A stretch of DNA of 37,417 bases, from IMG/VR virus record IMGVR_UViG_3300029705_005139; one strand, written 5' to 3'. Positions 733 to 37,177 of the stretch are shown in pieces (position 1 is the first letter of the stretch; every line of letters starts with the position of its first letter). Both the position numbers and the translations under genes were made by a program. A model generated the notes under the pieces. It was not told the DNA's origin and did no database searches. It was given only the letters and a program-made list of their open reading frames with translations. The DNA is from an uncultured virus (IMG/VR IMGVR_UViG_3300029705_005139). Taxonomy: Duplodnaviria > Heunggongvirae > Uroviricota > Caudoviricetes.

Positions 733-772
733 AAATCACAATCAATCGCTATGCAGAAGAGAGGTGATACCC

Positions 773-2599: not shown

Positions 2600-2611
2600 G
2601 GGAGGCTTACC

Positions 2612-3169: not shown

Positions 3170-3180
3170 GGAGGCCTATC

Positions 3181-6729: not shown

Positions 6730-6749
6730 TCTCGCCAAAGGAATCCGTT

Positions 6750-10763: not shown

Positions 10764-10775
10764 GGAGACAAATGT

Positions 10776-11720
10776 ATGTACAATGTATTCGAAGCAGCAA
10801 AAGAAACAGTAGCTCCTGATGAGCCCAATGTATTTGCAGATTTTCTGCTGAAATCAGGGCTTTATGACAGGATTGAAGTAAATCAAGAAAATATTCAGCA
10901 ATTAATCAATCTTCTAGCAGGAAGAGTGCGAATTGAATCATATTGTACTACTTGTCAGGAAATGCGCGTATTTTCACTGGAAACAATAAAAGTTTGGCGA
11001 TCTTCACCCAAGGGAATGGTTGAAGACACATTGGCCGACCAATTAGTGCGGTTTCAGACTCGCGTTAAAATTTCCAAAACACCGGCACCTGGACAAGCTC
11101 CACTGAATGAACCGTGGGTTTGGAATGATGCATCGATACAAAGTCATATGCGTGTTTTACCCCTGAGTTTCTGCTGTAGCATGAACGAATGCCACAAACT
11201 GGACATCATCATTGCTACAGATGGAAATGAATTGGTAAAAATCAGTCAGCATCCGTCCGTCGCTGATATTGCCTTTCCCGAACTGAAGCAATATCGCAAA
11301 GTGTTGTCAAAGGGAGATATGGGTGAGATGCGAAGGGCTATTGGCCTTCATGCGCAGGGCATAGGTGTTGGTTCGTATGTGTATCTGCGAAGAATTCTTG
11401 AAAGAGTCATTGATCAGGCAAAGGATATGGCAATTGCAGACTCGGCTATTACCGAGGCTGAGTATGTCCCTAAGAAAATGGCCGAGCGTATAAAAATGCT
11501 CAAAGACTATTTGCCTGATATTTTGGTGAACAATCCAACGGTTTATGGCATTATAAGCAAAGGAATCCATGAACTGTCGGAGGAGGATTGTATTGAATAT
11601 TTCCCGATTGTAAAAGAATGCATTTTTATGGTTCTTGAAAAGTGGGAACAGGCGCGAAAAAAAGCAGAATCTGAGAAACAACTAGGTGCTGCTCTTTCGC
11701 GGATTGCATCAAAAATCTAG
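10776..11720 (+). CDS. Accessory protein between pglX and pglZ; Cys pairs plus DUF4145/HEPN-like C-terminus
   Basis: AAGGAG RBS. YCTTC and CCSMNECH. C-terminal GVGSYVYLRRILE...YGIISKGIHELSE resembles DUF4145-type HEPN (inference). Confidence 0.6.
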   Translation: MYNVFEAAKETVAPDEPNVFADFLLKSGLYDRIEVNQENIQQLINLLAGRVRIESYCTTCQEMRVFSLETIKVWRSSPKGMVEDTLADQLVRFQTRVKISKTPAPGQAPLNEPWVWNDASIQSHMRVLPLSFCCSMNECHKLDIIIATDGNELVKISQHPSVADIAFPELKQYRKVLSKGDMGEMRRAIGLHAQGIGVGSYVYLRRILERVIDQAKDMAIADSAITEAEYVPKKMAERIKMLKDYLPDILVNNPTVYGIISKGIHELSEEDCIEYFPIVKECIFMVLEKWEQARKKAESEKQLGAALSRIASKI

Positions 11721-11736
11721 GAATTGAGGTGCTGTT

Positions 11737-14349
11737 GTGCCTAGTATGGATTTACAAAAGATTATACACGATTTGAATCGACGCTTTGCTGCACCGTTGC
11801 CTGATTTCTTTACCCGTCGAATCATCTTCTGGTATGACGAAGACAGGGAATTTGAGGACAAAGTGGAAAGCCTGGTTCTGGAAAATGCCAAGGTGCTTTT
11901 ACTAACTGGCAATAACACCTTTGCCGCAAAGAAAATCCTGGCAGCGGATGACACCTCCAGTAACTATTTGGTGTATTCGCCCCTTCGCTACGAAAGGCCG
12001 GAGGACAACTGGCTCATCAACATCGAACTGTACAGCGAGGAATTCCGGGCAGATCTCAATTCTATCTGGATGGATGAAATGGGACTGCCTAATAATGCCA
12101 CCGTTCGCCGCATGGTGAAGGGCTATCGTAAGTTCTTCAACAGCATCGAGCGCCGAAAGAACGTGGCTGCCATGGCAAAAGGCATTTCCACCGCTTCTCA
12201 ATTACATCTGGCCGTGATGGCATCCCTTTGCAATCTGCAGGATGTCCAACCGGCAAACATTATCCGTGCGGTTTTAAGCCACTCCCTGGAACTGGATACC
12301 AATTCCTATTACCAGGACTTTGTGAAGTACGGTGCAAATAACGCTTTCTGGGTAATGGTGGCACAGGCTACTGGTTATTCTGAGGGTGATGACTCCGACC
12401 TGGGTCGTCTGGCAACTCATATCATGCTGACTGCCTCCACCCGCACTATGCGGCCCGAGTTCCTGGCAGGATTGGACAGCTTCATTTCTATTCCCCACCA
12501 ATCCTATTGCTACGATCTGGTTTCTGATTGGCTCCAGTCTTCGGACAACCATGGTCTGTATGAGATCGCACGGTTTGTAGAATATGAGGCACGACTGAGT
12601 ACCCGATTCATGAAGATGACAGTCGAAGATCTTGCTGATACCGAGTGTTTCCCCTGCATCAATGAGTGTATTCTGAAACTGATGATGAAAGATATCAGCA
12701 ACTACATCATCAATATCGACACCATTGCTGTCATCGTCCAGAAACGTCGCACACTCGCATGGTATGATGCTGTGTCCTGCTATTATGAAGGTCTGCTTCA
12801 GGTGGGCAACATGCAGCAGTTCTTCCATGACCATGCAACCGGATTCCATTTGGCCCAGCCACAGCTGATTTGGAAGGCCTACACCTCAGACTATTATAAG
12901 ATGGATACCTACTACCGGCAGTTCCATCTGTGCTTTGAGCGAAGCCTAACTATTTCTAATGAAACATTGGACGATCTGTTCAAACAGGTGGTAGACAAGG
13001 TGGAGGGCCTGTATAACAACTGGTTCCTCTCCGAATTGGGCAGCAACTGGTCTGATGTATGTGCAGATGAGTTGGCTCAATATGGTCGTATCCTTGAAAT
13101 TAACCAACAAGAGCGTTTCTACCTCAGTAAGCTGGCAACCCGGGATAACCGTGTCTACGTTATTATTTCCGATGCCCTCCGTTATGAGGTTGCAGTTTCT
13201 CTGACTGAACAACTCAGGAGAGAAACACAGAGCAAGGTCACTCTGGAAAGCATGCAAGCTGTGTTCCCCACTATTACCAAGTTTGGCATGGCAGCACTGC
13301 TCCCTCACTCCAAACTGAATGTCGTTACCAAGGCAAATGGCGGTGTCTCCGTACTGGCCGACGGAGCCTCCACGGAAATGCCCTATCGGGATAAGGTTCT
13401 CAAGACTGCCCACGGTGCCAGCGTAGCCCTTCAGTACAAGAACATCATCAAGCTGAAGCGTGCTGAACGGCAGGCACTCGTCAAGGGCATGGATGTTGTT
13501 TACATATACCACGATAAAATTGACGAGGCCAGCCACACCGCAGACAATTTGGTATTTCCTGCCTGTGACGATGCCATTACAGAGATTAAAAACCTCATCC
13601 GCGTCATCGTCAATGACTTTGGTGGAACACGAATTCTGATTACAGCGGACCATGGTTTCTTATATACCTACAGTCCGTTGACTGAAGATGACAAGGTAGA
13701 CAAGACCAGCTTCCAGGGTATGGATGTAGAATATGGACGTCGTTATGCAATAATGCAGCAAGGTGCAAAGCCTGACTATTTGCTGCCCGTCCGCTTCGTG
13801 GATGAAGAATCTGGACTGGATACTTTTGCCCCCAGAGAGAACGTCCGCATTAAAATGAGCGGCGGTGGTATGAACTTTGTTCATGGCGGCATCAGCCTCC
13901 AGGAGATGGTCGTTCCGGTCATCGACTATCAGTTCCTCCGAAGCACAAGCAAAACCTATCAGCGCAACCGCGAGAAGTATGACACCAAACCTGTAACAGT
14001 GAGTCTCCTGTCTGCAACCCGGAAAATCAGTAACATGATTTTCTCACTGAACTTCTTCCAAAAAGAAGCCGTTGGTGACAATCGGTCTGTATGTAACTAT
14101 CTTTTATATTTTACAGACACAACCGGGAAACAGATTAGCGATACGGCTCGCATCATTGCAGACAAGACCAGCGACAATGCCCAGGATCGGACATTCCGCT
14201 GCAGCTTCAATCTAAAGAGCTTAAAGTACAGTAACCGAGACAGCTACTATCTGATTATTGCGGACGAATCTGGTTTACAGGCACCACAGCGTGAGGAGTT
14301 CCAGATAGATATTGCCTTTGCACTGGACGAGTTCAATTTCTTCGGTTAA
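11737..14349 (+). CDS. pglZ: BREX-1 alkaline-phosphatase-fold protein PglZ
   Basis: RRIIFWYD, IISDALRYE, PTITKFGMAALLPH, ITADHGF, HGGISLQEM. GTG start after GAGGTG (ATG 11746 is an alternative). Confidence 0.95.
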   Translation: MPSMDLQKIIHDLNRRFAAPLPDFFTRRIIFWYDEDREFEDKVESLVLENAKVLLLTGNNTFAAKKILAADDTSSNYLVYSPLRYERPEDNWLINIELYSEEFRADLNSIWMDEMGLPNNATVRRMVKGYRKFFNSIERRKNVAAMAKGISTASQLHLAVMASLCNLQDVQPANIIRAVLSHSLELDTNSYYQDFVKYGANNAFWVMVAQATGYSEGDDSDLGRLATHIMLTASTRTMRPEFLAGLDSFISIPHQSYCYDLVSDWLQSSDNHGLYEIARFVEYEARLSTRFMKMTVEDLADTECFPCINECILKLMMKDISNYIINIDTIAVIVQKRRTLAWYDAVSCYYEGLLQVGNMQQFFHDHATGFHLAQPQLIWKAYTSDYYKMDTYYRQFHLCFERSLTISNETLDDLFKQVVDKVEGLYNNWFLSELGSNWSDVCADELAQYGRILEINQQERFYLSKLATRDNRVYVIISDALRYEVAVSLTEQLRRETQSKVTLESMQAVFPTITKFGMAALLPHSKLNVVTKANGGVSVLADGASTEMPYRDKVLKTAHGASVALQYKNIIKLKRAERQALVKGMDVVYIYHDKIDEASHTADNLVFPACDDAITEIKNLIRVIVNDFGGTRILITADHGFLYTYSPLTEDDKVDKTSFQGMDVEYGRRYAIMQQGAKPDYLLPVRFVDEESGLDTFAPRENVRIKMSGGGMNFVHGGISLQEMVVPVIDYQFLRSTSKTYQRNREKYDTKPVTVSLLSATRKISNMIFSLNFFQKEAVGDNRSVCNYLLYFTDTTGKQISDTARIIADKTSDNAQDRTFRCSFNLKSLKYSNRDSYYLIIADESGLQAPQREEFQIDIAFALDEFNFFG

Positions 14350-14373
14350 TCCGTTCGCACTGGAGGTATATCC

Positions 14374-16437
14374 ATGGAGCAATCCATTATGGGCGATAAT
14401 GCCCGAGAAATAATCAAATACAAACTGCGCCAAACCTTTGATGGAAAAATCGTCCGTAAGGATCTTACCAAAAAGATCAAAGAGGGTGCCAATGTTCCTG
14501 TTTATGTCTTAGAGTTCCTTCTGGGGCAATACTGTTCTTCCGATGATGACGAAATCATTGAAAAAGGCGTACAAAATGTGAAGCGCATTCTGGCGGATAA
14601 CTTTGTCCGCCCGGATGAGTCACAGAAAATTCTGGCCAAACTCCGCAGCAACGGTAGCCATACTGTCATCGATATGATTACAGTCAGCCTGGATATTCGA
14701 AAGAATCGGTTTTTTGCTTCTTTCTCCAATCTCGGTCTAGGCGATGTTCCGATTGCAGATGAGTATCCGGAACAGTATGACCGACTCCTGTGTGGCGGTA
14801 TTTGGTGTATCGTCCAACTGGAGTATGAGTATAACGAAGAAGATAAGAAAAATGGTTACCCCATATTAATCCGGAAGTTGACCCCCATTCAAATGCCCCA
14901 CGTGGACATTGATGAATTGAAGGCCGGCAGGAAAGCTTTTACAAAAGATGAATGGATTGATGTTCTTCTCCGATCCATCGGTATGGAGCCGGATGAACTA
15001 TCCTACCGTGAGAAATGGCTGCTTATCACCAGAATGATTCCCCTGGTAGAAAACAACTTCAACCTTTGCGAGTTGGGTCCCCGTAGCACTGGCAAATCAC
15101 ATCTCTATAAAGAAATTTCTCCCAACAGCATTCTGGTTTCCGGTGGTCAAACCACTGTTGCCAACCTGTTCTATAACATGGGCCGCAAGACCGTTGGCTT
15201 AGTGGGTCTCTGGGACTGCGTTGCATTTGATGAGGTTGCCGGTATCCGTTTTAAGGATAAAGACGGTGTCCAGATTATGAAGGACTACATGGCTTCCGGA
15301 TCTTTTGCCCGTGGTAAAGAAGAAAAAGCTGCCTCTGCTTCCATGGTATTCGTAGGCAATATCAACCAGAGTGTGGATGTACTATTAAAGACTTCCAGCT
15401 TGTTTGATCCATTCCCACCGGAAATGGGTACCGATACCGCATTCCTGGATCGCATGCACTGCTATCTCCCTGGTTGGGAAATTCCCAAGTTCAGACCAGA
15501 GCATTTTACCAATGATTACGGATTCATCACTGATTACCTCTCTGAGTTTATTCGTGAATTGCGGAAGGAGCAGTATGGTGATGCCCTAGATCATTATTTC
15601 CGCCTTGGCAAGAATCTGAACCAACGTGATACCATTGCCGTGCGCAGAATGGTAGACGGATATCTAAAACTGATTTATCCCGATGGCGACTTCACAAAAG
15701 ATGATGTTGAAGAAATTCTGTGTCTTGCTCTTGAGATGCGACGCCGCGTTAAGGAACAGCTGAAAAAACTAGGCGGCATGGAATTTTACGACGTTAACTT
15801 CTCGTATATTGACAACGAGAGTTTTGAGGAACGCTATGTTACTGTCCCTGAACAAGGTGGCGGCAAACTAATTCCCGAAGGCATGTGCAACCCTGGACAG
15901 GTATATACCGTATCCCGGGGTAAATCCGGCATGCTTGGCGTGTTCCGTCTGGAATCTCAAATGTTACCTGGCAACGGTAAATTTGAACGAACTGGCCTGG
16001 GCGCAGATCGAGAAGCACGCGAATCCAGCAACACTGCTTTTAATTTCTTGAAAGCCAATGGCAACAGAATCAGCGGTAACATCAGTACCACAACCAAAGA
16101 TTATATCGTCAACTATCAGGACCTTCAGGGGATCGGCATGACCGGAAAACTTGCTATGCCCACGCTGATTGCTTTAGCATCTATCGCCCTCTCCAAGCCG
16201 GTCCAGAGTTCCATGGTGGTGCTTGGTGAGATGAGCATCGGTGGTACCCTTGTCAAGGTTGATGAGCTTGCAAACGCCTTGCAAGTTTGTCTGGACAGCG
16301 GTGCAAAGAAGGTCTTATTGCCTATTACCTCTGCAGCAGATTTGGCAATGGTTCCGGCAGATTTGATTGGTTGCTTTAATCTGATATTCTATAGCACTGC
16401 CGCTGATGCAATTTTCAAAGCACTAGGTGTAGACTAA
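14374..16437 (+). CDS. brxL: BREX Lon-like AAA+ protein BrxL
   Basis: VRKDL, VPVYVLEFLLGQYC, ELGPRSTGKSH, VAFDEV, C-terminal Lon-like domain. Confidence 0.95.
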   Translation: MEQSIMGDNAREIIKYKLRQTFDGKIVRKDLTKKIKEGANVPVYVLEFLLGQYCSSDDDEIIEKGVQNVKRILADNFVRPDESQKILAKLRSNGSHTVIDMITVSLDIRKNRFFASFSNLGLGDVPIADEYPEQYDRLLCGGIWCIVQLEYEYNEEDKKNGYPILIRKLTPIQMPHVDIDELKAGRKAFTKDEWIDVLLRSIGMEPDELSYREKWLLITRMIPLVENNFNLCELGPRSTGKSHLYKEISPNSILVSGGQTTVANLFYNMGRKTVGLVGLWDCVAFDEVAGIRFKDKDGVQIMKDYMASGSFARGKEEKAASASMVFVGNINQSVDVLLKTSSLFDPFPPEMGTDTAFLDRMHCYLPGWEIPKFRPEHFTNDYGFITDYLSEFIRELRKEQYGDALDHYFRLGKNLNQRDTIAVRRMVDGYLKLIYPDGDFTKDDVEEILCLALEMRRRVKEQLKKLGGMEFYDVNFSYIDNESFEERYVTVPEQGGGKLIPEGMCNPGQVYTVSRGKSGMLGVFRLESQMLPGNGKFERTGLGADREARESSNTAFNFLKANGNRISGNISTTTKDYIVNYQDLQGIGMTGKLAMPTLIALASIALSKPVQSSMVVLGEMSIGGTLVKVDELANALQVCLDSGAKKVLLPITSAADLAMVPADLIGCFNLIFYSTAADAIFKALGVD

Positions 16438-16475
16438 GTCTGTTGGATACATTCCTGAGAAGGGGGGGCGCAGAA

Positions 16476-17192
16476 ATGGCAAAACGCAAAAGAAGAAAAA
16501 GTACAAAGTGTCCAGAACCGCTCAATACACTTATCGATATGGCGGGGGGACTTGCTATGGGAGCTGTGGCCAGCCGGATGGAACAAAAATACCACTACAG
16601 AGATAAAGGAAAAATCAATCCTTATACTGTATCCGCTGTGGGAATTGCATCTGGCCGCATGAAGCGCACTGAAGATCTTCTTCGAACCGGAGCATTTCTG
16701 GGTGCAATGGGATCATTTGATATCGATGCCGATGATGCTCCAACCCGCCCCCACATTCCAGAAGATCCAGTATTTCGCCAAATCCGTGAAGCAAAGGTCA
16801 ATGATAACCGATATGCGTGGAGACTTAATTGTGAGGATGGAAGTGCATATGGTGTGTCTCCACATGACTATGAAACGCGGGTAGCATATAATGAGGCTCT
16901 AAAAGCAGCTAAAGGTGAACACGCGGAAGTAACGGCCACATCTCCGTCAGCATCGGTTGCCGATAAAAATGACAATCGACAGTACATTTTCTGTAGGGTT
17001 TCAAGGCTGGACAATGGAGCCAACGAGTACTATCTGTCAGCCTCCAATAACGTCAAAGTCGGTGATATGGTCCAGATAGCAAGTGAAGCTGGGTCCATAA
17101 GTGGCATCATAATAGCGATTGAATTGCATACCACATTAAGTGCGCCACAGCCACCAGAAAACATGCGGTGGATTACTTTGAATCACAGATGA
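16476..17192 (+). CDS. Hypothetical protein following brxL
   Basis: G-rich RBS then ATG 16476. Same strand, 38 nt after brxL. No recognised domain. Confidence 0.65.
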   Translation: MAKRKRRKSTKCPEPLNTLIDMAGGLAMGAVASRMEQKYHYRDKGKINPYTVSAVGIASGRMKRTEDLLRTGAFLGAMGSFDIDADDAPTRPHIPEDPVFRQIREAKVNDNRYAWRLNCEDGSAYGVSPHDYETRVAYNEALKAAKGEHAEVTATSPSASVADKNDNRQYIFCRVSRLDNGANEYYLSASNNVKVGDMVQIASEAGSISGIIIAIELHTTLSAPQPPENMRWITLNHR

Positions 17193-26757: not shown

Positions 26758-27681
26758 CTATCCACAATACAGCATCTCTTCAATCTCCATCGGATCCATG
26801 CCATCCTCAAGCAGAGCATCAATATCTTCTGGATACAGGCCATAGAAGACCGCAATTGCTTTCAAATCATCCAGATAGCTGGAATCATCTGCATATGGCC
26901 GTCTCACCGGATCGTAGTTGGCCCAGTAATGCCAATCAGTGGAAAAGCCGGGATAGATGTTGCTGTCATCAAACTGGCTGCGGGTGATTTTGCCTCTGGC
27001 ATCGATCCGAAGCATTTCTCCGCTGACCATATGTACCTTTTCTGCTTTTCCTAAAGGCAGCAATGCTTTCAGCATGGCCTTTTTCAGAATTTCCTCCGTA
27101 CTGGCATATACATAGATGCCCGCGTCAGGGTAGTGATAAATACACATGGGGTTGTTTCCTTTCACAAAATACAGCTCGTCCCTTTCGGTCAGAGCCGTAA
27201 TAGTGAAGGATCCTTCCAGTTGTTCTGCCATAAACTGTAATCCGCGGAAGTCTATGGAATCGAATCGCTCCAGCAACTGTACCGCCACATAGCTGTCTGT
27301 CTCGATTCTACTCTTGGGCAGATTCAGTTTCTTCTGGAGCCGTTCGTCATTGTAAATGATGCCGTTGTGGGCCAGAGCAAAGCGTGTATTGCCAGCCCAG
27401 CCGTGGAAGGGATGGTTGTTCTCATTTTTCAGTGCAGAACCCTGGGTGGTCATTCGGGTGTGACCCATAACCGCAGTTGCGCTTAGAGGCACACGATACC
27501 ACATCAGATGGGCAGGCAGAGGGCGCTTATAGATATACTGCTTTCCCTCAAAATTGTAGGAAATACCAGTGGCATCCGTGCCGCGTTCTTCACAGGAGGC
27601 CGACAAAATTGTCAGCAACCGGTGCCTCTGCTTTCGGGAGAGCTTGTGACCATAATCATGAAAACCAAACAGGCAGCACAT
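26758..27681 (-). CDS. Class II (Ntn) glutamine amidotransferase-like protein
   Basis: N-terminal MCCLFG (Cys2), ERGTDATG, GHTRMTTQG, NNHPF, LAHNGII, TDS. Confidence 0.88.
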   Translation of the reverse strand: MCCLFGFHDYGHKLSRKQRHRLLTILSASCEERGTDATGISYNFEGKQYIYKRPLPAHLMWYRVPLSATAVMGHTRMTTQGSALKNENNHPFHGWAGNTRFALAHNGIIYNDERLQKKLNLPKSRIETDSYVAVQLLERFDSIDFRGLQFMAEQLEGSFTITALTERDELYFVKGNNPMCIYHYPDAGIYVYASTEEILKKAMLKALLPLGKAEKVHMVSGEMLRIDARGKITRSQFDDSNIYPGFSTDWHYWANYDPVRRPYADDSSYLDDLKAIAVFYGLYPEDIDALLEDGMDPMEIEEMLYCG

Positions 27682-27683
27682 AC

Positions 27684-28784
27684 TTACACCTCCGCTTCGG
27701 CAACAACTGGATCATTTACGTACAGTCTGCGCTCCTTCAAATACTGAACAAGCTCGGGCTGCGTACAGCCGGCTACGAAAGTGGACCAGGACATATCCTT
27801 GATTTCCTCGTCAGAAAGATAAAGAGCCACGTCGCAGATCCTGTCAATGAGCTGCAGCGTGGCTAAAAGCGTATTCAGTTTCAATGTACCTCGGAAAATT
27901 CTGAATTCAATGGTATGGTAGTTAGTGAGGTTTATGCAGGTATACCGTTCCCGATCACCCTTAGCACACTTCAGAATGTCCTTAGGGTGCTCCTTTAAAC
28001 CATATCTGGCTGCCCACTGTTTCAGCTGCTTATGGGTACGGCGGCTGAATTTCAGCAGTTCCTCCCAGTTTTTCTCAAAGAAATATAAGATTCTGGCGAT
28101 TACTTCATCCTGTTCAGCTTCAGTTTTTCCGAAAGCACTGCGGTTGATGTGGATGTGCAGGCCACAGGTTCCGGCCTGGTGGCTGAGATAACCCATTTCC
28201 TTTGCCTGATTCAGAACTGCAGACCAGGGCATGTTGTTCATATGGTAGTCGATGGTCATGGGATGAGTAACAATTTCAAATCCGTCACTGAGAGAACCGT
28301 CATGCTTGCAGTAGATGTGTTCGCCTCCTTGGTTAGCTACACTCACAATCTTCGCAGCATTGCTGTTGCGTTCTCCCGCATCATCAATTTCCAGTTCAAC
28401 ACCAAACCAACGGCTGCCCTGACCCAGGAAGTCAGGTTCCGGTTTGTAATAATAGTCATGGATTACTTGGCTGTCATCGTAGCGGCAATGGCAGGAATAG
28501 CATCTGGCTTCGTAACTGTCATCATCCACGTAATAAGCATCATCGGTCAAAATGACACGGCCACAGTCTTCGCAGGAAGTGTAATAGCGGTCATAGCAGC
28601 GCTGACAAAGATGGGTAGCATCATCACCAGCGTTACTGTCTGCCCAGAGACGCTCACCACACCGCTGACAACAAATGGTTTCTGTGTGCAGACAGGAAGA
28701 GCAAAGATAGCTGTCATCAAATTCCGTCAAGTCCTCCACCGGATGCAGGCTGCCGCAGACACTGCAGGATCTCATTTCTTTCAA
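27684..28784 (-). CDS. Putative amidoligase (COOH-NH2 ligase fold) with N-terminal Zn ribbons
   Basis: FGVELEID, KHDGSL..GFEIVTHP, CGLHIHI, TIEFRIFRGTL; six CxxC pairs. TTG start 7 nt after GGAGGT. Confidence 0.85.
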   Translation of the reverse strand: MKEMRSCSVCGSLHPVEDLTEFDDSYLCSSCLHTETICCQRCGERLWADSNAGDDATHLCQRCYDRYYTSCEDCGRVILTDDAYYVDDDSYEARCYSCHCRYDDSQVIHDYYYKPEPDFLGQGSRWFGVELEIDDAGERNSNAAKIVSVANQGGEHIYCKHDGSLSDGFEIVTHPMTIDYHMNNMPWSAVLNQAKEMGYLSHQAGTCGLHIHINRSAFGKTEAEQDEVIARILYFFEKNWEELLKFSRRTHKQLKQWAARYGLKEHPKDILKCAKGDRERYTCINLTNYHTIEFRIFRGTLKLNTLLATLQLIDRICDVALYLSDEEIKDMSWSTFVAGCTQPELVQYLKERRLYVNDPVVAEAEV

Positions 28785-29107
28785 GGGAATTACCTCCATA
28801 AAATAAAAATTCCGCATGGGGCATAACAGCTCCATGCGGTTGTTTCTATGAAGATAATATACAATTGATATCGTGCTATTTTGACATAGGTGTCTCTTCT
28901 CGCTTAATATGTCTGATAAGTACAAGGTAATTGAGTATATGTGCTCATGCTGCAAATTGCGTCTCAGATTATTGCAATAATATTTGCATCAATTTCAGTT
29001 CTTTATTAAAACACATTTCCCACGATTTAGTCGCTTTTTACTCTCCCGTGAACAATGTAATAAAGAGAAGCTGTTTTCACTTCTTAAAAATAAAAGGAGG
29101 ACCTACT

Positions 29108-29785
29108 ATGTCCAAAATGAACGAAAACTCCAAACAGCAAAAGAACCCCAATGTGACCAACGTAACCCCTCAAGAATTCGCTCTGATGCCGTTGAACACC
29201 TTCTTCACTGACTACGTCACACACCACCGACAATGCCATATCACCGGACCGTCCTACGATGCATTCACTGACGATGTAATCCGATATTTGATGCCCATTA
29301 TCGGAAATGTGGAACTGAAGGATCTCAGCGTCGAAAAACTCAAAGGCTGTTACAAATATATTTATGAATGGTTTAAGGTACCTATGAAACTGATTGCCGG
29401 TATGAACAGACTTCTGGAGGTTGCTTTAGACTCCGTCTTACATCGTGGCCTGCTCAAAGACAATCCCGCAGCAGATCTCTCCAGAGAATACGTCGAAAAA
29501 ACTCACCGTGAGCTTCCTTACAAGCAATTTCCGATTATCGCAAGACAGATGCATCCAGAAGAGCTAGACGACTGCTGTAAAAAAATTCCCCATTACGATG
29601 TTTATGCTCCCTTCTTTCACAATATCCATTATCTTGGATCCGACATGATCGACGGAATTAACCTGGTACGGTGTTTTCTAATCGACGAGTTGGAAGTAAA
29701 ACCACGGTTCGATGCCGACCCCTCTCTCAAAGATCATCCTCTAATGCCTGGGGAGAGAGTCTTCATGATGAAGCTGGATACATGA
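29108..29785 (+). CDS. Stand-alone integrase core-binding (SAM-like) domain protein
   Basis: AAAGGAGG RBS. YLMPIIGNVELKDLS...ALDSVLHRGLLKDNPA aligns by eye with the window's integrase HLKPALGDIVLQELT...ALKFAEAEGYINSNPA. No catalytic R-K-HxxR-H-Y set. Confidence 0.7.
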   Translation: MSKMNENSKQQKNPNVTNVTPQEFALMPLNTFFTDYVTHHRQCHITGPSYDAFTDDVIRYLMPIIGNVELKDLSVEKLKGCYKYIYEWFKVPMKLIAGMNRLLEVALDSVLHRGLLKDNPAADLSREYVEKTHRELPYKQFPIIARQMHPEELDDCCKKIPHYDVYAPFFHNIHYLGSDMIDGINLVRCFLIDELEVKPRFDADPSLKDHPLMPGERVFMMKLDT

Positions 29786-30523
29786 ATCGAAATAGTATAT
29801 CACAGCAATCAAAAGTACATTTCACGCTGAATCTGCTTCCTTGAATTAACAAATCTAGCCGTGAGCCACAATATGGTTCACGGCTGCCCCTGTTCTAATG
29901 TATAAAGCTTCTCATACAAGTATCGAATATGCTCCTGAACCAAAGTATAGAAAGCTTCTCGAACAGCCTATGGCTCCTTTGTGTATTATAGCCGGCACGA
30001 ACCACCTTCTGGAGGTTACTTATGATTATGCCATCCGTCAGGAAACAGGCATCTGCAATCCTGCAGGTATTCTTTCAAACGAATATACTCAACAGGCCCA
30101 CCGCAAACTACCTGATTCACAGTATCCTCTGATTGTAACACAGTTCACTCCCACACATCTTGATAATTATCCCTTGATACTATTTGTTTTATCCAGTCTA
30201 ACCTGAAGGCAAATCAAAAAATCGTTTGGGTAGAATTGAATGCTCGATAATGTTCATTTTTACAAAATATATAATTAATATCATAACATATCAATATATA
30301 CTAATATATTTCACCTTCACATTATCATTATGAGGTAGATAGAGCACAATGGGTAAAGCAAAAATCATTTTCAATTGGATATTCCCATCAAAAAGGATAC
30401 AATAAAAATCACTGTAGACCTACCCATTGTAATAACTCACTATATCTAAGATTTTCAAAATTATCCTTTACATCGGTTTTTGAAAATCCCTACGGTATTA
30501 GTAGTTGTAAAAATGCTCTATCC

Positions 30524-30560
30524 AAACAGGCATCTTCCAAATATGGAAGATGCCTTGTTT
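30524..30560. terminator. Hairpin at the helicase 3' end
   Basis: aaacaggcatcttcca / tggaagatgccttgttt IR, 8 nt from the helicase stop. Confidence 0.65.
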
Positions 30561-30568
30561 GCATTCTT

Positions 30569-32551
30569 TTATTTCATATGCTTAAAGCGGATACCTTCAA
30601 TGGTACTGCGCGCATTTTTATATTTTCCATCGTGATAAGAACGGATTTTATTGGCCCCATAGATTTCCTCAGCCATTCGCTGGAAAGATGCAGAAAACAT
30701 CTTCTCTGTAAAATGGTTGGAAATATCGTTAGAAAATATTTCGTAGGCATTTCCAATCGCTACTTGACCGCCAGGATCTCTCTCAAAATAACTCATTAAA
30801 AAATTGTACACCAGAGGTGTAATCTCAGAGCCTCCCAGAAGATCGTCGGGATACAAAAGAGACGAATTCACTGCATAGTCTCCTGCAAAATGATAGTGAT
30901 TATCCCGCAGTCTGAAATAAGCATCCAAAGCTTTAGACGCAATAGCAGGCTTCTCTTCCTTTAAACGATCCAGCAAATCTTCGTCCTTTGCTTCTTGAGG
31001 AACCGTATAGAAAAACGGAATGACCACCGCACGTCTCATAAAGGCATCATCAGGTTCCTCCGTTACCAGAGGATAATTCGTGGTAAGAATAAATTTACCT
31101 TCGAAACGGAACTGCTTGTTTCCTTTATGCTTTACCGCAGCAGAAATCTTATCATTACCGGTTGCCTGCTTAACACAACTGGTAGACTTCGTGTCCAGGG
31201 GCTCAGGAGGCAGGTCGGGAGACAGACACAGTGCTACAGAATCGAGATTTCCCATTGCAAATTCTCCCTTCAATGCATGTACATTAAGTCCTGAAACCTT
31301 ATCCTCCGGATAGAAATCACCCAATAAGTTACACAAAATACTTTTACCGGAGTCCGGAACACCTTGAAACAGGAAATATGCCTTTGCATTTCTATCAGAA
31401 GTCAAGCAATACCCAAAAACCTGCCAAATGCGTTCCTGCAATGTAGTGTCTCCTCCTGTAATATCGTGCAAGAACTTATCAAATACAGGAGAATTTTCGT
31501 TCTGATTATTGTATCGTGCCAAATTACAATTCACTGCATGCGTAACTACATTAGCAGGTGAATGTTCCATTAACGTTCTATTATTCAGATCGATCGTACA
31601 ATTTGCAAAGGAAACCTTATTTGGGTCAGAAAGAGGAACCTCATTTCTAACAATTTGAGGCTCTTTCAGGAGTAATTTATACACCTTTTCAATCACGGAA
31701 CCACTTCCACTTTCCCTAATAATCGGGCGGTACATCTCCATGATCATCTGTTCAACTTCACACTGAGGAGTCTTATTATAGCTTCCGCTTACATCGTCAT
31801 AGATGTACACCTCCTGCTTATGTGTAAATACAGGAACTTTTAAAATGAAATCTGTCATGATGTCATAAGCAGTTACTTTGATTCCTTTCTTTTTACCCGA
31901 TCCCCTACCCGAACCAGAAGAAAAACCAGGGAATACAACAGGAAACATTCCGGGCATATTAGGTGCCTGCAAGGAAGGCACAAATTGATTGGGATTAGGC
32001 ATGGAATTCGGAATTGGCATAATGGTTCCTTGCATATTTGCTTCCATTGCATAATTGGAGGATCCTGCAGCAGACTGCTGAGATGCGTTCAAATAATCTG
32101 CATACGGGTTGAACGATTTTCTACAGGGTGCCACAGAATTATTCATGGTAACACTTCTTTCGTTGTTTCCATTAAATTGCACCATATTTCTCTGCGACAG
32201 AATTGCATTCGCCTGGGCCCCATGATTAGATGTAGCTCCCGGCATTACAATTACATTTTCTTTCTCATTCATCTGTACAGGACAAGAAGAAAATGCATTC
32301 TCTACTGCACTATACTTCCTATTCACAGTATCATTACCTAAATCAACTACACTGTCAACAGGAGGAATGGCCATATTCTGTACACTCATAATACCTGTAC
32401 CAACCTGCCCTGTAGTTGGAACCATTGCATTTACAGGGGCAGAAAACCCCTGCTCTGGCTGATGCTGCATAAAGATATTGTCAGTAGACTCTTCATTCTG
32501 AATAATCAAATCAGTAAAATCAATGTTATCGAAAATCTTACCACTAGTCAT
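30569..32551 (-). CDS. P4/D5-family SF3 helicase (phage/plasmid primase-helicase C-terminal type) with low-complexity N-terminus
   Basis: FANCTIDL...EHSP, FDKFL..I, FGYCLT, Walker A GVPDSGKS, KQATGND.ISAAVKHK, TTNYP, AFMRR..VIPF. AAGGAG RBS favours ATG 32551 over 32587. Confidence 0.85.
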   Translation of the reverse strand: MTSGKIFDNIDFTDLIIQNEESTDNIFMQHQPEQGFSAPVNAMVPTTGQVGTGIMSVQNMAIPPVDSVVDLGNDTVNRKYSAVENAFSSCPVQMNEKENVIVMPGATSNHGAQANAILSQRNMVQFNGNNERSVTMNNSVAPCRKSFNPYADYLNASQQSAAGSSNYAMEANMQGTIMPIPNSMPNPNQFVPSLQAPNMPGMFPVVFPGFSSGSGRGSGKKKGIKVTAYDIMTDFILKVPVFTHKQEVYIYDDVSGSYNKTPQCEVEQMIMEMYRPIIRESGSGSVIEKVYKLLLKEPQIVRNEVPLSDPNKVSFANCTIDLNNRTLMEHSPANVVTHAVNCNLARYNNQNENSPVFDKFLHDITGGDTTLQERIWQVFGYCLTSDRNAKAYFLFQGVPDSGKSILCNLLGDFYPEDKVSGLNVHALKGEFAMGNLDSVALCLSPDLPPEPLDTKSTSCVKQATGNDKISAAVKHKGNKQFRFEGKFILTTNYPLVTEEPDDAFMRRAVVIPFFYTVPQEAKDEDLLDRLKEEKPAIASKALDAYFRLRDNHYHFAGDYAVNSSLLYPDDLLGGSEITPLVYNFLMSYFERDPGGQVAIGNAYEIFSNDISNHFTEKMFSASFQRMAEEIYGANKIRSYHDGKYKNARSTIEGIRFKHMK

Positions 32552-32611
32552 TATAAATTTCTCCTTATTTTTTAAAAAATCTGACATGTAACATATTGCT
32601 GTTAATGTTGA

Positions 32612-32815
32612 TCAAGTATCAACTGAATAATCCTCAACAGAAAATTCAAACACATATTTCCGCAGGTATAATCCACACCGCACTTTTTCACACCATGTAT
32701 CATATAAATTAGCGCTGTCTCCCCAATACAGAATATCTCCATTCGCATCCCGTATTCTGTAACTCCCCGGAGCACTTGGTGGAATCGAATGACAATATAC
32801 TTTTTTGTAGGTCAT
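32612..32815 (-). CDS. 67-aa protein resembling the N-terminal half of a GIY-YIG domain
   Basis: PSAPGSYRIRDANGDILYWGDSANL resembles UvrC-type P..PGVY...D..G..LYVGKA.NL. AAAGGAG RBS. Confidence 0.6.
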   Translation of the reverse strand: MTYKKVYCHSIPPSAPGSYRIRDANGDILYWGDSANLYDTWCEKVRCGLYLRKYVFEFSVEDYSVDT

Positions 32816-32824
32816 GTTTTCTAC

Positions 32825-33353
32825 TCCTTTCTTTGAAGATGGCTTTAGTTTATCAATTCGGGCAAAAGTTGCGTCAGCTGATAGCTGACATTTTCGTTTT
32901 TCATGCAATTATTTTCTATAAGTCTATTGACTGTTATATTGTATCTGGACACGATTTTCTTTTTACTAGACATGTATTCCACTCCCTTCTTTAAACTGGC
33001 TACAATTTATCATTTCAGATCAGCTTCGCGTCAGCTGGCAACTGACATTTCGTTTTTTACCCTCAAAAAATGTAGTTCTATTGACAATCCTATTACAGGT
33101 CTTCATCACCCTATTTTCATTGGACATATCTTTCGCTCGTCTCTTCAAAGATAGCTATAATTTATCACTCCAGACAAATTTTGCGTCAGCCAATAACTGA
33201 CATTTACCTGTTCAATAAAAAGTTCCAAAACTCTGTCAACAATCAGATATCTTTCCTTTGTAATTCTATATTCATCAGAAAACAGCCTTCCTTCCCCTGA
33301 AGATAGCCTTAGTATATCAATTTGGCAGTTTCCCGTGTCCGCCGATAGCTGAC
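32825..33353 (-). repeat. Four degenerate ~155-bp tandem units, each palindrome + extended -10 + RBS
   Basis: Palindromes start at 32873, 33030, 33185 and 33337. Each is exactly 17 nt from TGATAAACT, TGATAAATT, TGATAAATT or TGATATACT on the minus strand. Confidence 0.85.
32845..32973 (-). CDS. 42-aa small ORF within the repeat array
   Basis: AAGGGAG RBS, MSSKKKIVSRYNITVNRLIENNCMKNENVSYQLTQLLPELIN. May be a by-product of cassette duplication. Confidence 0.35.
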   Translation of the reverse strand: MSSKKKIVSRYNITVNRLIENNCMKNENVSYQLTQLLPELIN

Positions 33354-33395
33354 AAAAAAACACACCTGCACCAAATCATAGGTGCAGGTGTGTTT
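33354..33395 (-). terminator. Rho-independent terminator of the macro-domain gene
   Basis: 15-bp IR aaacacacctgcacc / ggtgcaggtgtgttt plus U7 tail. Confidence 0.85.
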
Positions 33396-33406
33396 ACACA
33401 ATCAAT

Positions 33407-34387
33407 TTAAATTTCGCCTAAGCCATTTGCGACACGCATATCATTATATCGGATTACATCATACCCCTCAGTTGAGAAAAACTCTTTTATTAATCTGTCC
33501 TCTTGCTTGTCATCTGACAAAGCATATCCCGCTTTTTCCAAAAACTCCTCCATTTCTGCAAAAGAGAGTTTCAATTGTATGGCAATTAAAATTACCGTCT
33601 CTTTTTTAGGTGTTTTCTTCCCAGAAAAAATATCGGAAAAGCTCTGACGAGACAGATTAATGAATTTATATATTTGAGGGGCATCCAAATTTCTATTATT
33701 CATATAATATCTTAAAAGATCAACGAAGCTCTTAGGTTGCATATTCACATGAAAATAATCAGATTGTAGAATAGATTCATGAATACGTTCCGGTGGCTCA
33801 TACGATTGATGTCGTGTGTATTCATACTCTAAAATTTTACGCGATTCTTCATATGTTAAGTATTCTTCTACTGCAAAAACTTTCCGTACAGCAGAAACAG
33901 TGGCTTCATCAAATACAGTAATATAGATTTCCATGTTGTTATTCAGTGCAAACTGCATGCCCTCAGAAATCGCCATTGTCAAAGAAACCTCGATTGGAAT
34001 CTGGTAAATTCCCGTGCCAAGCAATGGCATTGCTATAGACACAGAAAGCAAATTATGATTTTGCATATAGTCTACTGCAGCAGCCAATGATTTATGATAG
34101 CACTTCTGCACGCAAGCATATTCATCATGAAAACCATCCGTCCATGCAACTGAAACCACATGGATTACTTTTTTTGCATTCAATCCAAATGCATCAGTAA
34201 TTGCAATGTCGCCAGACGTAATCGTGCCAATTTTTTTACGTTCCTCCCACATCGCCAGTCCCGCTTTATTAAAAATAGCCTTATCCAAACCATTTCCAAT
34301 TTTCGGTTCCGGATTGGCAGTATTAACGATAAAATCTACATAGAATGGCAAATCAGCCAGATTGGCACGAATGATATGGATTGACAT
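33407..34387 (-). CDS. Macro-domain (ADP-ribose-binding) protein with C-terminal XRE-type HTH
   Basis: DFIVNTAN...GNGLDKAIF.KAG, AKKVIHVV, SIAMPLLGTGIY; then QIYKFINLSRQSFSDIFSGKKTPKKETV...LEKAGYALS. Confidence 0.88.
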   Translation of the reverse strand: MSIHIIRANLADLPFYVDFIVNTANPEPKIGNGLDKAIFNKAGLAMWEERKKIGTITSGDIAITDAFGLNAKKVIHVVSVAWTDGFHDEYACVQKCYHKSLAAAVDYMQNHNLLSVSIAMPLLGTGIYQIPIEVSLTMAISEGMQFALNNNMEIYITVFDEATVSAVRKVFAVEEYLTYEESRKILEYEYTRHQSYEPPERIHESILQSDYFHVNMQPKSFVDLLRYYMNNRNLDAPQIYKFINLSRQSFSDIFSGKKTPKKETVILIAIQLKLSFAEMEEFLEKAGYALSDDKQEDRLIKEFFSTEGYDVIRYNDMRVANGLGEI

Positions 34388-34432
34388 AGTTAATTTCCTC
34401 CCCACTATTTTTTAGGAGTTATATCTTTTTTG

Positions 34433-34461
34433 ATTATACCTTAAAAAATTAATAGTGACAA
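34433..34461 (-). promoter_or_regulatory. SigA promoter TTGTCA-N17-TATAAT for the macro-XRE gene
   Basis: Near-consensus hexamers with a 17-bp spacer. Confidence 0.75.
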
Positions 34462-34520: not shown

Positions 34521-35951
34521 TTAACTCAAAGCCAGCTGCAGCACAAACTGTCCAATCTCACAGGGGATATTCGCCACAGGTGTCGGAATCGGAGGATAGA
34601 TGCAAGTTCCCAGTTCCTCCTGCAAACTCTCCCGCAGTTCAGACAGGCCCTGCATCAGGTTGGACGTATTGCAGTTGATTTCCGGAAAGTCCGGCATTGT
34701 AAGCTCTGCAGTACCGTCAGAAAGATTGGTCACCAGTACAGGATACGTGGTATCCACGCTTACGGGCTCCGGAATGTTGAACAGTTCTTCCATCAGTGCC
34801 ATGCCAGCCTGCTTGTGATCATCCAGCACATGAGCATAGGTATCCAGTGTAAATGCCACGGATGCATGGCCCAGAATGACGCTCAGGGTCTTGACATCCA
34901 TGCCCTGCTCCATAGCTCTGCTCGCAAATGTATGACGCAGGGCATGGAATGTAAAGTGCCGAAGGCCGCACACACGCAGAATCTGATTGTATTGATCCTT
35001 AAAGGTGCGGGGCTCCATATATCCGCCCATGGGATTTGTCACAATGAAACCGCTTTCACAGTAAGCATCCCCCGCTGCCAGTTTATCCTGCTGCTGAACA
35101 CGCTGCCAGCCCTGCAGATCCTGCAAAACCTGCGGCAGCAGCGGAATGGAGCGGACAGAATTCTGAGACTTGGGTGTCTGGATCACGATCTCCGTTGTAG
35201 CCTCTCCCGCATTCTTGGGTTTGTTGGTCTTATTCAGCCGATTCAGTGTACGGCGAATGTAGATTCGCCGGCCCTGTACATCTACGTCCTCCCAACGCAG
35301 GCCCAGCAGCTCCCCAACTCGAATACCGGTAAACAGCACCAGCCGAATAAAAACACCGTAACGATGCTGGTAGCTTCCCTGGATCAGCCGCATCTGCTCA
35401 TCTCTGGTCAGAATCACGATCTGAGGCCGAGCTCCACTGGGCAGGTTCACAGAGGAGGCAGGATTGCTGTTAATGTAACCCTCCGCCTCTGCAAACTTTA
35501 GCGCCCTGTGCAGGAACAGATTGATATTCACAATTGTTTTTGCAGATAAACCCTCCACCTCAGCCTTGTAATTATAGAAAAGCTGCAGTGTTCTGGGAGT
35601 CAGTTCCTGCAAAACAATATCTCCCAAAGCCGGTTTCAGATGAACCCGAATATAACTTTCATAGCTGAGATATGTAGACTGCTTCAGCGTATGCTTCATA
35701 TACACATCCAGACACAGATCCAGCCAATCTCCCAAAGTAACACGCGTAAAGTTATTGGGACTGGTATCGTTCATAAAGCTCATCTGATTCAGCAGGCGTA
35801 CTGCTTCTTCTTTTGTCTTTGCATACTTGGAAACCCTCTTGGGCTTTCCGGTCATTTTGTCATAGTCCACGGTTACACGGACCTCATAGCGGCCATCGGA
35901 CCGCATCTTGATATTGCCTTCGTTGTTGGCTCTTGATTTTGCCATAGTCAT
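34521..35951 (-). CDS. Tyrosine recombinase/integrase with C-terminal HicB-like extension
   Basis: Arm-binding N-terminus, core-binding domain, catalytic TGIRVGE, TPKS, FHALRHTF, LGH, LDTYAH. About 75 extra C-terminal aa. ATG 35945 is an alternative start. Confidence 0.93.
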   Translation of the reverse strand: MTMAKSRANNEGNIKMRSDGRYEVRVTVDYDKMTGKPKRVSKYAKTKEEAVRLLNQMSFMNDTSPNNFTRVTLGDWLDLCLDVYMKHTLKQSTYLSYESYIRVHLKPALGDIVLQELTPRTLQLFYNYKAEVEGLSAKTIVNINLFLHRALKFAEAEGYINSNPASSVNLPSGARPQIVILTRDEQMRLIQGSYQHRYGVFIRLVLFTGIRVGELLGLRWEDVDVQGRRIYIRRTLNRLNKTNKPKNAGEATTEIVIQTPKSQNSVRSIPLLPQVLQDLQGWQRVQQQDKLAAGDAYCESGFIVTNPMGGYMEPRTFKDQYNQILRVCGLRHFTFHALRHTFASRAMEQGMDVKTLSVILGHASVAFTLDTYAHVLDDHKQAGMALMEELFNIPEPVSVDTTYPVLVTNLSDGTAELTMPDFPEINCNTSNLMQGLSELRESLQEELGTCIYPPIPTPVANIPCEIGQFVLQLALS

Positions 35952-36407: not shown

Positions 36408-36935
36408 TCAATTCAGCACTTCATACTGGTATCTGTCAGCATCACAGAAAGGATTCTCTTTGGTGTATCCTCTGGTACGGCATAAATTCACTCTAAACCT
36501 GGGATAAATCTGCTTCAGCAATCCGCAAAGTCTTTTGAACATGGCATTGCCATCACTATATTGATGCCCATCCAAAAAGCTGGTGGTGTTCATGACAATA
36601 TGCAGATGCTCATAACTGCCATCCATATGAATACCATAAACCATCTGGTACTCCCGAAACAATTGTCCTGTCAGAAAACCCAGGTGCAGCAGCTCATCCT
36701 CGTCAATATAAGCTGCCTCTGTATGGTTAAGACTAATCATAAAGTGCTTCAGCTGAAGCGTATCACTCTGATAGAACGCCCGTTTCACAAACTGCATCTG
36801 CATATATGCTGCTTCCGCGTTTGTACTTACACCATAGCCGCCAACTGCTACTGCTTTATCCAGCGCATAGTGGATCACATAATGCAGCGCCCGATCGTCC
36901 GGATATGTATTTCTCGTAATTATAACATTCGGCAT
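36408..36935 (-). CDS. Short relaxase/mobilization nuclease (HUH, MOBP-like)
   Basis: KHFMISL and VYGIHMDGSYEHLHIVMNTTSFLDG (H-x-D-x4-HxH motif). Confidence 0.8.
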   Translation of the reverse strand: MPNVIITRNTYPDDRALHYVIHYALDKAVAVGGYGVSTNAEAAYMQMQFVKRAFYQSDTLQLKHFMISLNHTEAAYIDEDELLHLGFLTGQLFREYQMVYGIHMDGSYEHLHIVMNTTSFLDGHQYSDGNAMFKRLCGLLKQIYPRFRVNLCRTRGYTKENPFCDADRYQYEVLN

Positions 36936-37177
36936 AACTGATTTACCTCCTTTGTAATTTCATCATCTTCTAAGCCCAGCTCCGCAAGACGGATCTGAAT
37001 TCTGCACATAATGGGTGCAATACTCTGTCTGTAATTAACTTCTGCTGGTAGCGCATTGCTGATTAATAATCTTAGATAGTTACTGTTAGACATATTTAAC
37101 TTATTACTATTAGATTCTATTTTGGTATACATCTTATTCGATAATCTTAATGATATTGTTTTATCTTTGTTTTTCAT
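36920..37177 (-). CDS. MobC-like ribbon-helix-helix protein
   Basis: KTISLRLS...NMSNSNYLRLLI RHH pattern. AGGAGG RBS. Overlaps the relaxase start. Confidence 0.7.
   Translation of the reverse strand: MKNKDKTISLRLSNKMYTKIESNSNKLNMSNSNYLRLLISNALPAEVNYRQSIAPIMCRIQIRLAELGLEDDEITKEVNQLCRML

Follow-up and report, generated by a model that had tools for sequence, protein, structure and literature searches.

A putative macro-XRE regulator, its predicted palindromic operator and a fourfold array of putative promoters ahead of an island helicase operon

On the IMG/VR virus record IMGVR_UViG_3300029705_005139 we analysed a module in which a gene for a Macro domain joined to an XRE-type helix-turn-helix (HTH) is followed by four tandem repeats, a mini open reading frame (ORF) and a helicase gene. 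The window, by which we mean the whole stretch of DNA that was analysed, corresponds in reversed orientation to the first 37,416 nt of this 69,872-nt 'provirus' record, and its integrase, macro-HTH gene, array, mini ORF and helicase gene all lie on the minus strand, as the first-pass annotation had placed them. Our main finding, which comes from comparison of sequences across the regulator's family, is that a 17-bp palindrome is well supported as the operator of macro-HTH proteins. In the explanation we propose, macro-XRE would be a dimeric one-component transcription factor with the palindrome as its operator, and each repeat would be a complete cassette of operator, extended -10 element 20 nt downstream, no -35 box, ribosome-binding site (RBS) and start codon. 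The four cassettes would jointly drive the operon of mini ORF and D5-type helicase in an integrative island that carries bacteriophage exclusion (BREX) and other defence genes. The likely input is the YmdB/MacroD-like macro domain, which would bind ADP-ribose or an ADP-ribose conjugate, and the operator-bound dimer would then activate RNA polymerase in a class II manner, so that ADP-ribose signals, for example those of phage ADP-ribosyltransferases or NADase defences, would switch on the replication helicase. To this explanation as a whole we assign about an even chance.

The array (32822–33357, minus strand) comprises four tandem units of ~155 bp, delimited by direct-repeat families D1–D4 and by unit alignment, and its four direct repeats are spaced 157, 155 and 152 bp apart. 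Repeat and palindrome searches placed a predicted operator in each unit: GTCCGCCGATAGCTGAC in unit 4 (33337–33353), the first after the terminator of the macro-HTH gene; GTCAGCCAATAACTGAC in unit 3 (33185–33201); GTCAGCTGGCAACTGAC in unit 2 (33030–33046); and GTCAGCTGATAGCTGAC in unit 1 (32873–32889), which adjoins the mini ORF. Predicted extended -10 elements on the minus strand are TGATATACT in unit 4 (33311–33319), TGATAAATT in both unit 3 (33159–33167) and unit 2 (33004–33012), and TGATAAACT in unit 1 (32847–32855). Three of them came from a -10 search together with reading of the sequence; that of unit 2, where the script chose another hexamer on a tie, came from sequence reading and the unit alignment. 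In gene direction the order within a unit is TGTCAG-N7-CTGAC, 20 nt, a TGATAnAnT extended -10, ~25 nt, RBS and ATG, of which TGTCAG..GAC and TGATA.A.T are invariant across the aligned units. Unit 2 has an ATG at the position homologous to the mini-ORF start, and the 42-aa ORF it opens (32845–32973, minus strand) traverses the operator of unit 1; a 35-aa ORF of unit 3 (33020–33127, minus strand) is arranged alike and traverses the next operator, and in unit 4 the ATG at this position is lost. Neither of the two small ORFs matched PHROG.

A query with GTCAGCTGATAGCTGAC at up to 3 mismatches gave 6 matches at the four sites, two of which matched on both strands; shuffled sequence gave an expectation of 0.08, and 6 matches were reached in 0/100 shuffles. 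Across the whole 69,872-nt record there was no further good palindrome site. Gut-metagenome contigs from four runs in four studies were colinear across all four units (0–1 gaps, 8–123 substitutions), and the array is therefore real, not an assembly artefact, and stable at four units in this lineage.

Ahead of the array, the macro-HTH gene is served by a promoter and a terminator of its own, as the first-pass annotation had it: a sigma-70-type promoter, TTGTCA-17-TATAAT (34433–34461, minus strand; 11/12 consensus matches and the top site of the scan), and an intrinsic terminator (33358–33395, minus strand) with a perfect 15-bp stem including 8 GC pairs, an 8-nt loop and a T run. The same annotation described this terminator as abutting the first palindrome and the array as pointing into the mini-ORF and helicase operon; the terminator's end indeed lies 4 nt from the palindrome at 33337–33353, and the direction of the array holds as well. 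The palindrome search of the whole record placed no family palindrome at the gene's own promoter (34433–34461). The generic sigma-70 scan missed the inferred promoters inside the repeats because they have no -35 box.

That macro-XRE and the palindromes form a cognate pair was originally an inference from one sequence, and comparison now supports it through co-occurrence, co-variation with the HTH recognition region, rarity of the site in five genomes and a predicted homodimer. Macro-HTH fusions are widespread, forming 209 protein clusters, and at least 565 loci in species-representative genomes, mostly of Clostridia, encode a relative at 29–43% identity. For the family comparison we used 81 loci: 80 fetched from species genomes, most of which match almost the full-length protein, and L082, at 67% identity, the only locus that a metagenome scan gave. 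A search upstream of the macro-HTH genes found no shared palindrome; the operator lies downstream. Of 76 loci, 42 had GTC-N11-GAC between -10 and +150 nt relative to the stop codon of the macro-HTH gene, against a background of 122 matches in 655,016 nt (0.03 per 160 nt), and most of these palindromes lay 0–22 nt past the stop and were of the type GTCGC-N7-GCGAC. Five loci stood outside this count, one with short downstream DNA (L002) and four with split or partial matches (L008, L019, L022 and L069); in L008 and L019 the palindrome is visible by eye.

We also searched with a composite signature, defined as a palindrome with at least 5/8 complementary pairs, exactly 21 nt and TAnnnT. This returned 62 matches in 58/81 loci, with 59 of the 62 on the regulator's strand; reversed sequence yielded 5 matches, and other spacings within 15–27 nt yielded 2–12 each. 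Loci without the motif directly behind the stop codon had a translationally coupled gene in between, with the signature after it. Similar palindromes do, then, flank macro-XRE homologues, a check that the first-pass annotation had named. Scans of IMG/VR proteins with the regulator and with the helicase found no close relatives, and plasmid relatives were all below 60% identity, with full-length matches reaching at most 31%. Nine single matches to the palindrome pattern in IMG/VR were treated as chance; none of those records encodes a relative of any window protein.

Operators and protein vary together across the family. Among the 59 co-oriented operator 17-mers, 54 are distinct, and the GTC/GAC ends are conserved as sequence, beyond pairing alone. 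Half-site positions 4–5 co-vary with the start of the HTH recognition helix in at least five distinct pairings: DRK(L/H)FSKI with GTCGC (18 loci), ISKQYFSKL with GTCGC/TTGAC (7 loci), ITKG.FSK with GTCTC (2 loci), LSRQSFS(D/E)I with GTCAG (the window and L082) and ITKKVFSDI with GTCAC (1 locus), where these co-variation counts, like those of co-occurrence, ignore shared ancestry. Whole-genome scans of five genomes found the site to be rare (reversed-pattern controls, 0–12 matches per genome). In two genomes the sole site lies beside the regulator gene, one has two sites, Catonella morbi has three, two of which follow macro-HTH paralogues, and one has no site, its locus (L009) likewise being without a motif near the stop codon. 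In C. morbi a second macro-HTH paralogue ends at L057:330-450 with an operator of its own behind it, GTCGCATTAGGGTTGAC, at a distance of ~6.7 kb from the first, so some genomes hold two macro-HTH modules close together.

The regulator itself (33407–34387, minus strand) is a 326-aa protein if it starts at the ATG at 34387. The listed ORF, 33407–34405, opens with a GTG at 34405; the ATG gives the length of the closest homologues and is the likely start. Residues 1–175 match Pfam Macro (PF01661; 8.1e-23, 81.1 bits against a cutoff of 22), have Escherichia coli YmdB as their best sequence match (E 8.5e-14), and in an AlphaFold2 model of the regulator (predicted local distance difference test score, pLDDT, 90.6) have E. 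coli YmdB 1spv as nearest fold (Foldseek E 3e-12, TMt 0.87, root-mean-square deviation (rmsd) 1.9 Å). The C-terminal part contains a five-helix domain (residues 215–290; pLDDT 83.4 for a model of residues 196–326), whose nearest folds are XRE-type: the HTH of DdrO (TMt 0.80, rmsd 1.8), ClgR, P22 c2, 434 Cro, C.AhdI and HipB, with TMt 0.66–0.80 and Foldseek probability 0.97–1.00 for these C-terminal matches. PHROG 8, 'transcriptional regulator', matches the protein at 1.2e-05, and a profile of the C-terminal domain searched against PDB sequences reached a best E of 0.036. A symmetric homodimer was predicted with a score of 0.66 against 0.02 for the best control, with at least 96% contact agreement between runs and pLDDT of at least 86; the mark for this score was attained by 20 of 30 proteins solved as same-chain pairs, as against 1 of the 23 solved as single chains. 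The predicted interface comprises helix 133–148 and residues 283–293, i.e. both domains, and the models support a homodimeric regulator.

The promoter geometry bears on the sign of regulation. Class II activation is known from lambda cI at PRM, and exact operator spacing is expected where an activator touches RNA polymerase. The distance from the palindrome to the best -10 hexamer downstream is exactly 21 nt in 41/43 loci. With this hexamer set at -12 to -7, the operator would span ~-50 to -34 with its centre at -42 (-41 in the window), 29–30 nt upstream of the first base of the -10 box, positions that depend on the inferred -10 box and not on mapped starts. At spacers of 16–18 nt, no site had more than a 3/6 match to a -35 box (59/59 sites at or below it; mean 1.69, against 2.48 in random sequence). 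A TG precedes the -10 in 23/59 family sites and in all four window units, and both the -35 box and the TG motif are absent from 36/59 promoters.

An NrtR-like repressor sitting over the -35 region would be the strongest rival: the helicase operon would be off by default and derepressed when ADP-ribose at the macro domain frees the protein from DNA. The evidence that pairs regulator with operator serves this account equally, the operator covers a region bound by RNA polymerase, promoters bearing TG might work without an activator, and the gene occupies the master-repressor slot of islands, between integrase and replication genes. Negative control is also the published model for the Nudix-HTH and WYL-HTH analogues, as given in section 3.8 of PMC9503650. 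Yet a repressor needs no nucleotide-exact spacing, the 21-nt distance stands out by 62 signature matches against 2–12 at each of the other spacings, and the 36 promoters without -35 box and TG should be weak unaided. We regard repression of this kind as a real possibility, though below an even chance. Activation is favoured over it, if only slightly, because the spacing is kept to the nucleotide across a family diverged to ~30% identity and because there is no -35 box; the simple repressor switch implied by the first-pass annotation accordingly gives way to a geometry (operator centre at ~-41/-42, no -35 box) that fits an activator better. Under either sign the expected output would be the same, with an ADP-ribose-related signal turning the downstream genes on.

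The macro domain is the candidate sensor for three reasons: its fusion to the HTH is constant, the predicted dimer interface draws on both domains, and the genes that the cassette usually drives act on ADP-ribose. In MacroD/YmdB-like macro domains N-x6-GG[VLI]D and G[VIA][YF]G serve as catalytic and binding motifs; the window protein has N-PEPKIG-NGLD and GIYQ, and distant relatives have GGGTD and GVYG/GIYG. In an alignment of 27 family sequences Asn22, Asn25, Gly33 and Asp35 are invariant and the GxY motif is conserved. The domain might instead be mainly an enzyme that removes ADP-ribose, with the HTH setting a constant expression of neighbouring genes or tethering the protein to DNA, and no switch involved. 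Its NTAN-motif asparagines, an Asp and the GxY motif have aligned counterparts in YmdB, the nearest NCBIfam models are O-acetyl-ADP-ribose deacetylases, though all equivalog scores fall far under their cutoffs, and RefSeq names distant relatives as O-acetyl-ADP-ribose deacetylases. Against a plain enzyme stand the macro-HTH fusion, which persists across the family (at least 565 loci encode a relative, and most of the 80 fetched match almost in full length), the predicted interface spanning both domains, and the usual targets, which themselves remove ADP-ribose and would make regulatory sense if ADP-ribose is the signal. The residue three before the conserved Asp, moreover, varies in the family (N, S, K, G, A or R), unlike a strictly conserved active site. 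We consider the enzyme-only account unlikely.

Very improbable, finally, is that the palindromes are replication-origin iterons for the D5-type helicase, or else hairpins of RNA or DNA (terminators or processing sites, for instance), with no relation to the macro-HTH protein: the array does adjoin the helicase gene, palindromes can fold, two were flagged as terminator-like on the plus strand and a T run follows 13/59 family sites, yet this palindrome type accompanies macro-HTH genes in 58/81 loci while 0/80 species-genome loci encode a relative of the helicase or integrase, the GTC/GAC ends are kept as sequence, the distance to a -10 box is fixed, the window array is already preceded by a strong, separate terminator, and the units hold RBSs and start codons that iterons do not need.

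Returning to the ADP-ribose-responsive activator, several observations weigh against it. In the window clade the glycine-rich phosphate/ribose loop reads IGNG where YmdB has GGGG, and ADP-ribose binding or catalysis may therefore differ. HTH_3 stays under its 23-bit cutoff (18.9 bits, 0.0016, with the whole protein; 20.9 bits with the C-terminal domain), only 5/27 family C-terminal domains match HTH_3 and 6/27 match HTH_26 at E <= 0.01, and Foldseek E-values for the HTH domain are only 0.02–0.3. The window units space their -10 at 20 nt where the family has 21 nt, an operator across the -35 region also fits a repressor, and the T runs after 13/59 sites recall that the palindromes can form hairpins too. 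L082 is the sole close-relative locus that was fetched, so that the window clade contributes two operator-regulator pairs. No gene for an ADP-ribosyltransferase, NADase or ADP-ribosylglycohydrolase was found among the window and record proteins scanned, and any ADP-ribose signal would have to arise elsewhere in the cell. To these are added the two limits given above, shared ancestry in the family counts and the dependence of the operator position on inferred -10 boxes. On balance we consider the ADP-ribose trigger and the replication outcome plausible.

The genes behind the family's operators show the usual targets of the cassette. The first gene after the 59 co-oriented signatures encodes an ADP_ribosyl_GH protein in 32 cases and a vWA-like protein in 20 (contig end in 5, other in 2). 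The ADP-ribosylglycohydrolase (ARG) is fused to SseB in at least one case, and in other gene-neighbourhood counts the vWA-like gene is often followed by the glycohydrolase. By gene order, the macro-HTH module is apparently the usual regulator of chromosomal ARG/vWA operons in Clostridia. Relatives of the window integrase, helicase and mini ORF are absent from all 80 species-genome loci. Coupling of the cassette to a helicase operon is confined to the window clade, and the fourfold array is known only from the window lineage: in L082 the regulator is followed by a terminator, one palindrome, TGATAGAAT, an RBS and a mini-ORF homologue with a homologous start. Two further relatives, P0029 and P0032, are in-frame chimeras of a macro domain with parts of a D5-type helicase, with HTH, array and mini ORF missing; they appear to show macro and helicase genes adjoining in further relatives, and could have arisen by natural deletion between adjacent genes or as artefacts of assembly.

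The likely history, as read from these comparisons, is that a mobile island captured the cassette from Clostridia operons and that a fourfold tandem duplication followed in the window lineage. The first-pass annotation did not recognise the circuit as described. The module proves not to be unique to this element, being usual in Clostridia ARG/vWA operons, whereas the coupling to a helicase remains particular to the window clade, and co-option of the cassette for the proposed control of island replication is new. As a broader and speculative hypothesis, which we put well below an even chance, macro-XRE may represent an undescribed family of ADP-ribose-responsive, class-II-type activators that ancestrally served the reversal of ADP-ribosylation, the island's captured and quadruplicated cassette acting as an infection alarm that fires the helicase so that the island amplifies or escapes under attack.

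The nearest published parallel is a set of ARG-centred conflict systems with vWA or SseB chaperones, placed under HTH regulators with Nudix or WYL sensors and predicted ADP-ribose sensing (Iyer, Burroughs, Anantharaman, Aravind 2022, PMC9503650 section 3.8); these systems are predicted to counter viral ADP-ribosylation (PMC9503650). Distant relatives of the window regulator (30–43% identity) resemble them in that a one-component HTH regulator accompanies ADP_ribosyl_GH and vWA-like or SseB genes in an operon, and the window likewise combines such a regulator with an ADP-ribose-related candidate sensor and no coupled transferase (no transferase domain among the scanned record proteins). The sensor here is Macro, whereas the text of that paper names Nudix and WYL only and treats Macro as an accessory enzyme, and the strings 'Macro-HTH' and 'HTH-Macro' are absent from the main text of PMC9503650 (figures and supplements aside). 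Its lineages, as given there, are actinobacteria, planctomycetes and proteobacteria, whereas the macro-HTH loci are mostly from Clostridia. The window locus also differs in having no ARG gene; it has the regulatory cassette alone in common with those systems. Our literature search found no paper describing macro-HTH regulators, and in the BREX paper PMC12839542 'macro' occurs in other senses only.

Other regulators share parts of this design. NrtR has a winged-helix DNA-binding domain and ADP-ribose as its effector. It is a Nudix-related regulator that represses NAD metabolism genes from palindromic operators by its own gene (as described in PMC2330246 and PMC6800001). Like the window protein, it joins an ADP-ribose-related enzyme fold to a DNA-binding domain with palindromic operators next to its own gene; the enzyme fold of NrtR is Nudix, whereas the window regulator combines Macro with an XRE-like HTH and has no Nudix match. 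Lambda cI at PRM and the C proteins of restriction-modification systems exemplify class II activation by XRE-type HTH dimers. The resemblance lies in an XRE-type dimer on a ~17-bp palindrome centred near -42 and overlapping a poor -35, and C.AhdI and C.Esp1396I are among the fold neighbours of the HTH domain; unlike macro-XRE, those proteins have no ligand-binding enzyme domain, and activation here would follow from geometry alone. Stl of Staphylococcus aureus pathogenicity islands (SaPIs), whose structures 7p4a and 7zvi are also fold neighbours of the HTH domain, is comparable as an HTH regulator with a large sensor part, located between island integrase and replication genes, that decides the timing of replication. 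Stl is transcribed divergently to the replication genes and helper-phage proteins release it, whereas here the genes are co-directional, a terminator separates regulator from target, the candidate sensor is Macro and there are four tandem promoters. YmdB and human MacroD1/2 (1spv, 5cb3, 6y4y), the best fold and sequence matches of residues 1–175, are stand-alone enzymes without a DNA-binding domain.

If true, the proposed mechanism would make Macro one of the few sensor domains of bacterial one-component regulators and widen the predicted ARG-centred systems to include gut Clostridia, together with a defined cis element. The operator-promoter pair (17-bp palindrome, 21 nt, -10 box) is directly testable as an ADP-ribose biosensor, and its exact spacing makes a falsifiable prediction of activation as against repression. 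A mobile island would then have coupled its own replication to a signal of host stress or infection, which bears on phage sensing by defence-carrying islands.

The presumed target operon begins with the 67-aa mini ORF (32612–32815, minus strand; RBS AAAGGAG), into which the last repeat runs. The mini ORF, named a mini GIY-YIG gene in the first-pass annotation, matched nothing in Pfam, NCBIfam or PHROG. Its Atlas feature score is 0.93, and it shares 162 features with small GIY-YIG/DUF7508 clusters, fewer than the 170 typical of true members; as a lead only, the product is possibly a minimal GIY-YIG-like protein. The second gene (30569–32587, minus strand) encodes a 672-aa D5-type superfamily 3 (SF3) helicase of the P4-family 'primase C-terminal' type, with matches to D5_N (2e-08; 35 bits, cutoff 22.4) and DUF5906 (6.2e-09; 36.9 bits, cutoff 27.6), a TIGR01613 score of 105.4 bits, narrowly under the 108.7 cutoff, and PHROG DNA primase family matches down to 6.5e-42; no primase catalytic domain was matched in it. 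An RBS fits a start at Met13 (32551). Residues 1–230 (31890–32587) are of low complexity, rich in Q, N, P, M and S and without a domain match, and one metagenome variant carries a 24-nt insertion at 31991, in this N-terminal region. Hairpin and terminator scans found a hairpin with a 12-bp stem directly past the helicase stop (30528–30555), the likely end of the operon. In the 360-bp spacer 3' of the helicase gene an iteron search gave only weak two-copy repeats and AT-rich palindromes, and no convincing origin. We infer that the helicase operon drives island replication because of its family (D5_N, DUF5906, P4-type) and its place near the integrase gene.

The first gene of the module encodes that integrase, a 476-aa tyrosine recombinase (34521–35951, minus strand; Pfam Phage_integrase 1.1e-24 and Phage_int_SAM_3, PHROG 1 integrase 6.9e-82). 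With an integrase and a D5_N/DUF5906 helicase, the element has the integrase and primase/helicase module of phage-inducible chromosomal islands (PICIs), elements that a helper phage induces and packages. Its regulator and replication genes are co-directional with a terminator between regulator and target, not divergent, and we rejected a SaPI-like PICI for want of the divergent regulatory region. Besides the module, the island's cargo includes a type 1 BREX system, a KAP NTPase, an AAA-ATPase/PD-(D/E)XK protein, a resolvase and a GATase and Amidoligase_2 pair. The other half of the record (37001–69872) carries phage-type genes (small and large terminase subunits, portal, Dit, RusA) together with a PriCT_2/AAA_25 primase-helicase, Abi_2, two DNA methylases and a ParE-like toxin; the island sits beside or inside a prophage.

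Elsewhere in the window, the type 1 BREX set is complete (1994–16437, plus strand: BrxA, BrxB, BrxC, PglX-like methylase, PglZ and BrxL), and three additional ORFs without a Pfam match lie in its region (6750–7244, 10776–11720 and 16443–17192). A 258-aa protein (671–1447, plus strand), encoded just ahead of an HTH_26 gene and the BREX operon, unites sigma-70 region 4 with the C-terminal domain of RNA polymerase alpha, an unusual pairing. Two ORFs of 284 and 102 aa (28931–30206, plus strand), with no family match in Pfam, NCBIfam or PHROG, share a similar stretch (NPAADLSREYVEKTHRELPYKQFP in one, NPAGILSNEYTQQAHRKLPDSQYP in the other) and could represent gene fragments that were duplicated. At the record's edge, past the integrase, a 175-aa protein with a MobA/VirD2-type relaxase domain and a NikA-like protein are encoded (36408–37177, minus strand); these genes could be part of the same mobilizable element or of a neighbouring one. 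The GATase and Amidoligase_2 pair lies at 26758–28955, and homologues of the amidoligase stand near macro-HTH genes in L082 (6–548, 51% identity) and L061 (1407–2249, 46% identity), so amidoligase and macro-HTH gene may form a recurring linkage.

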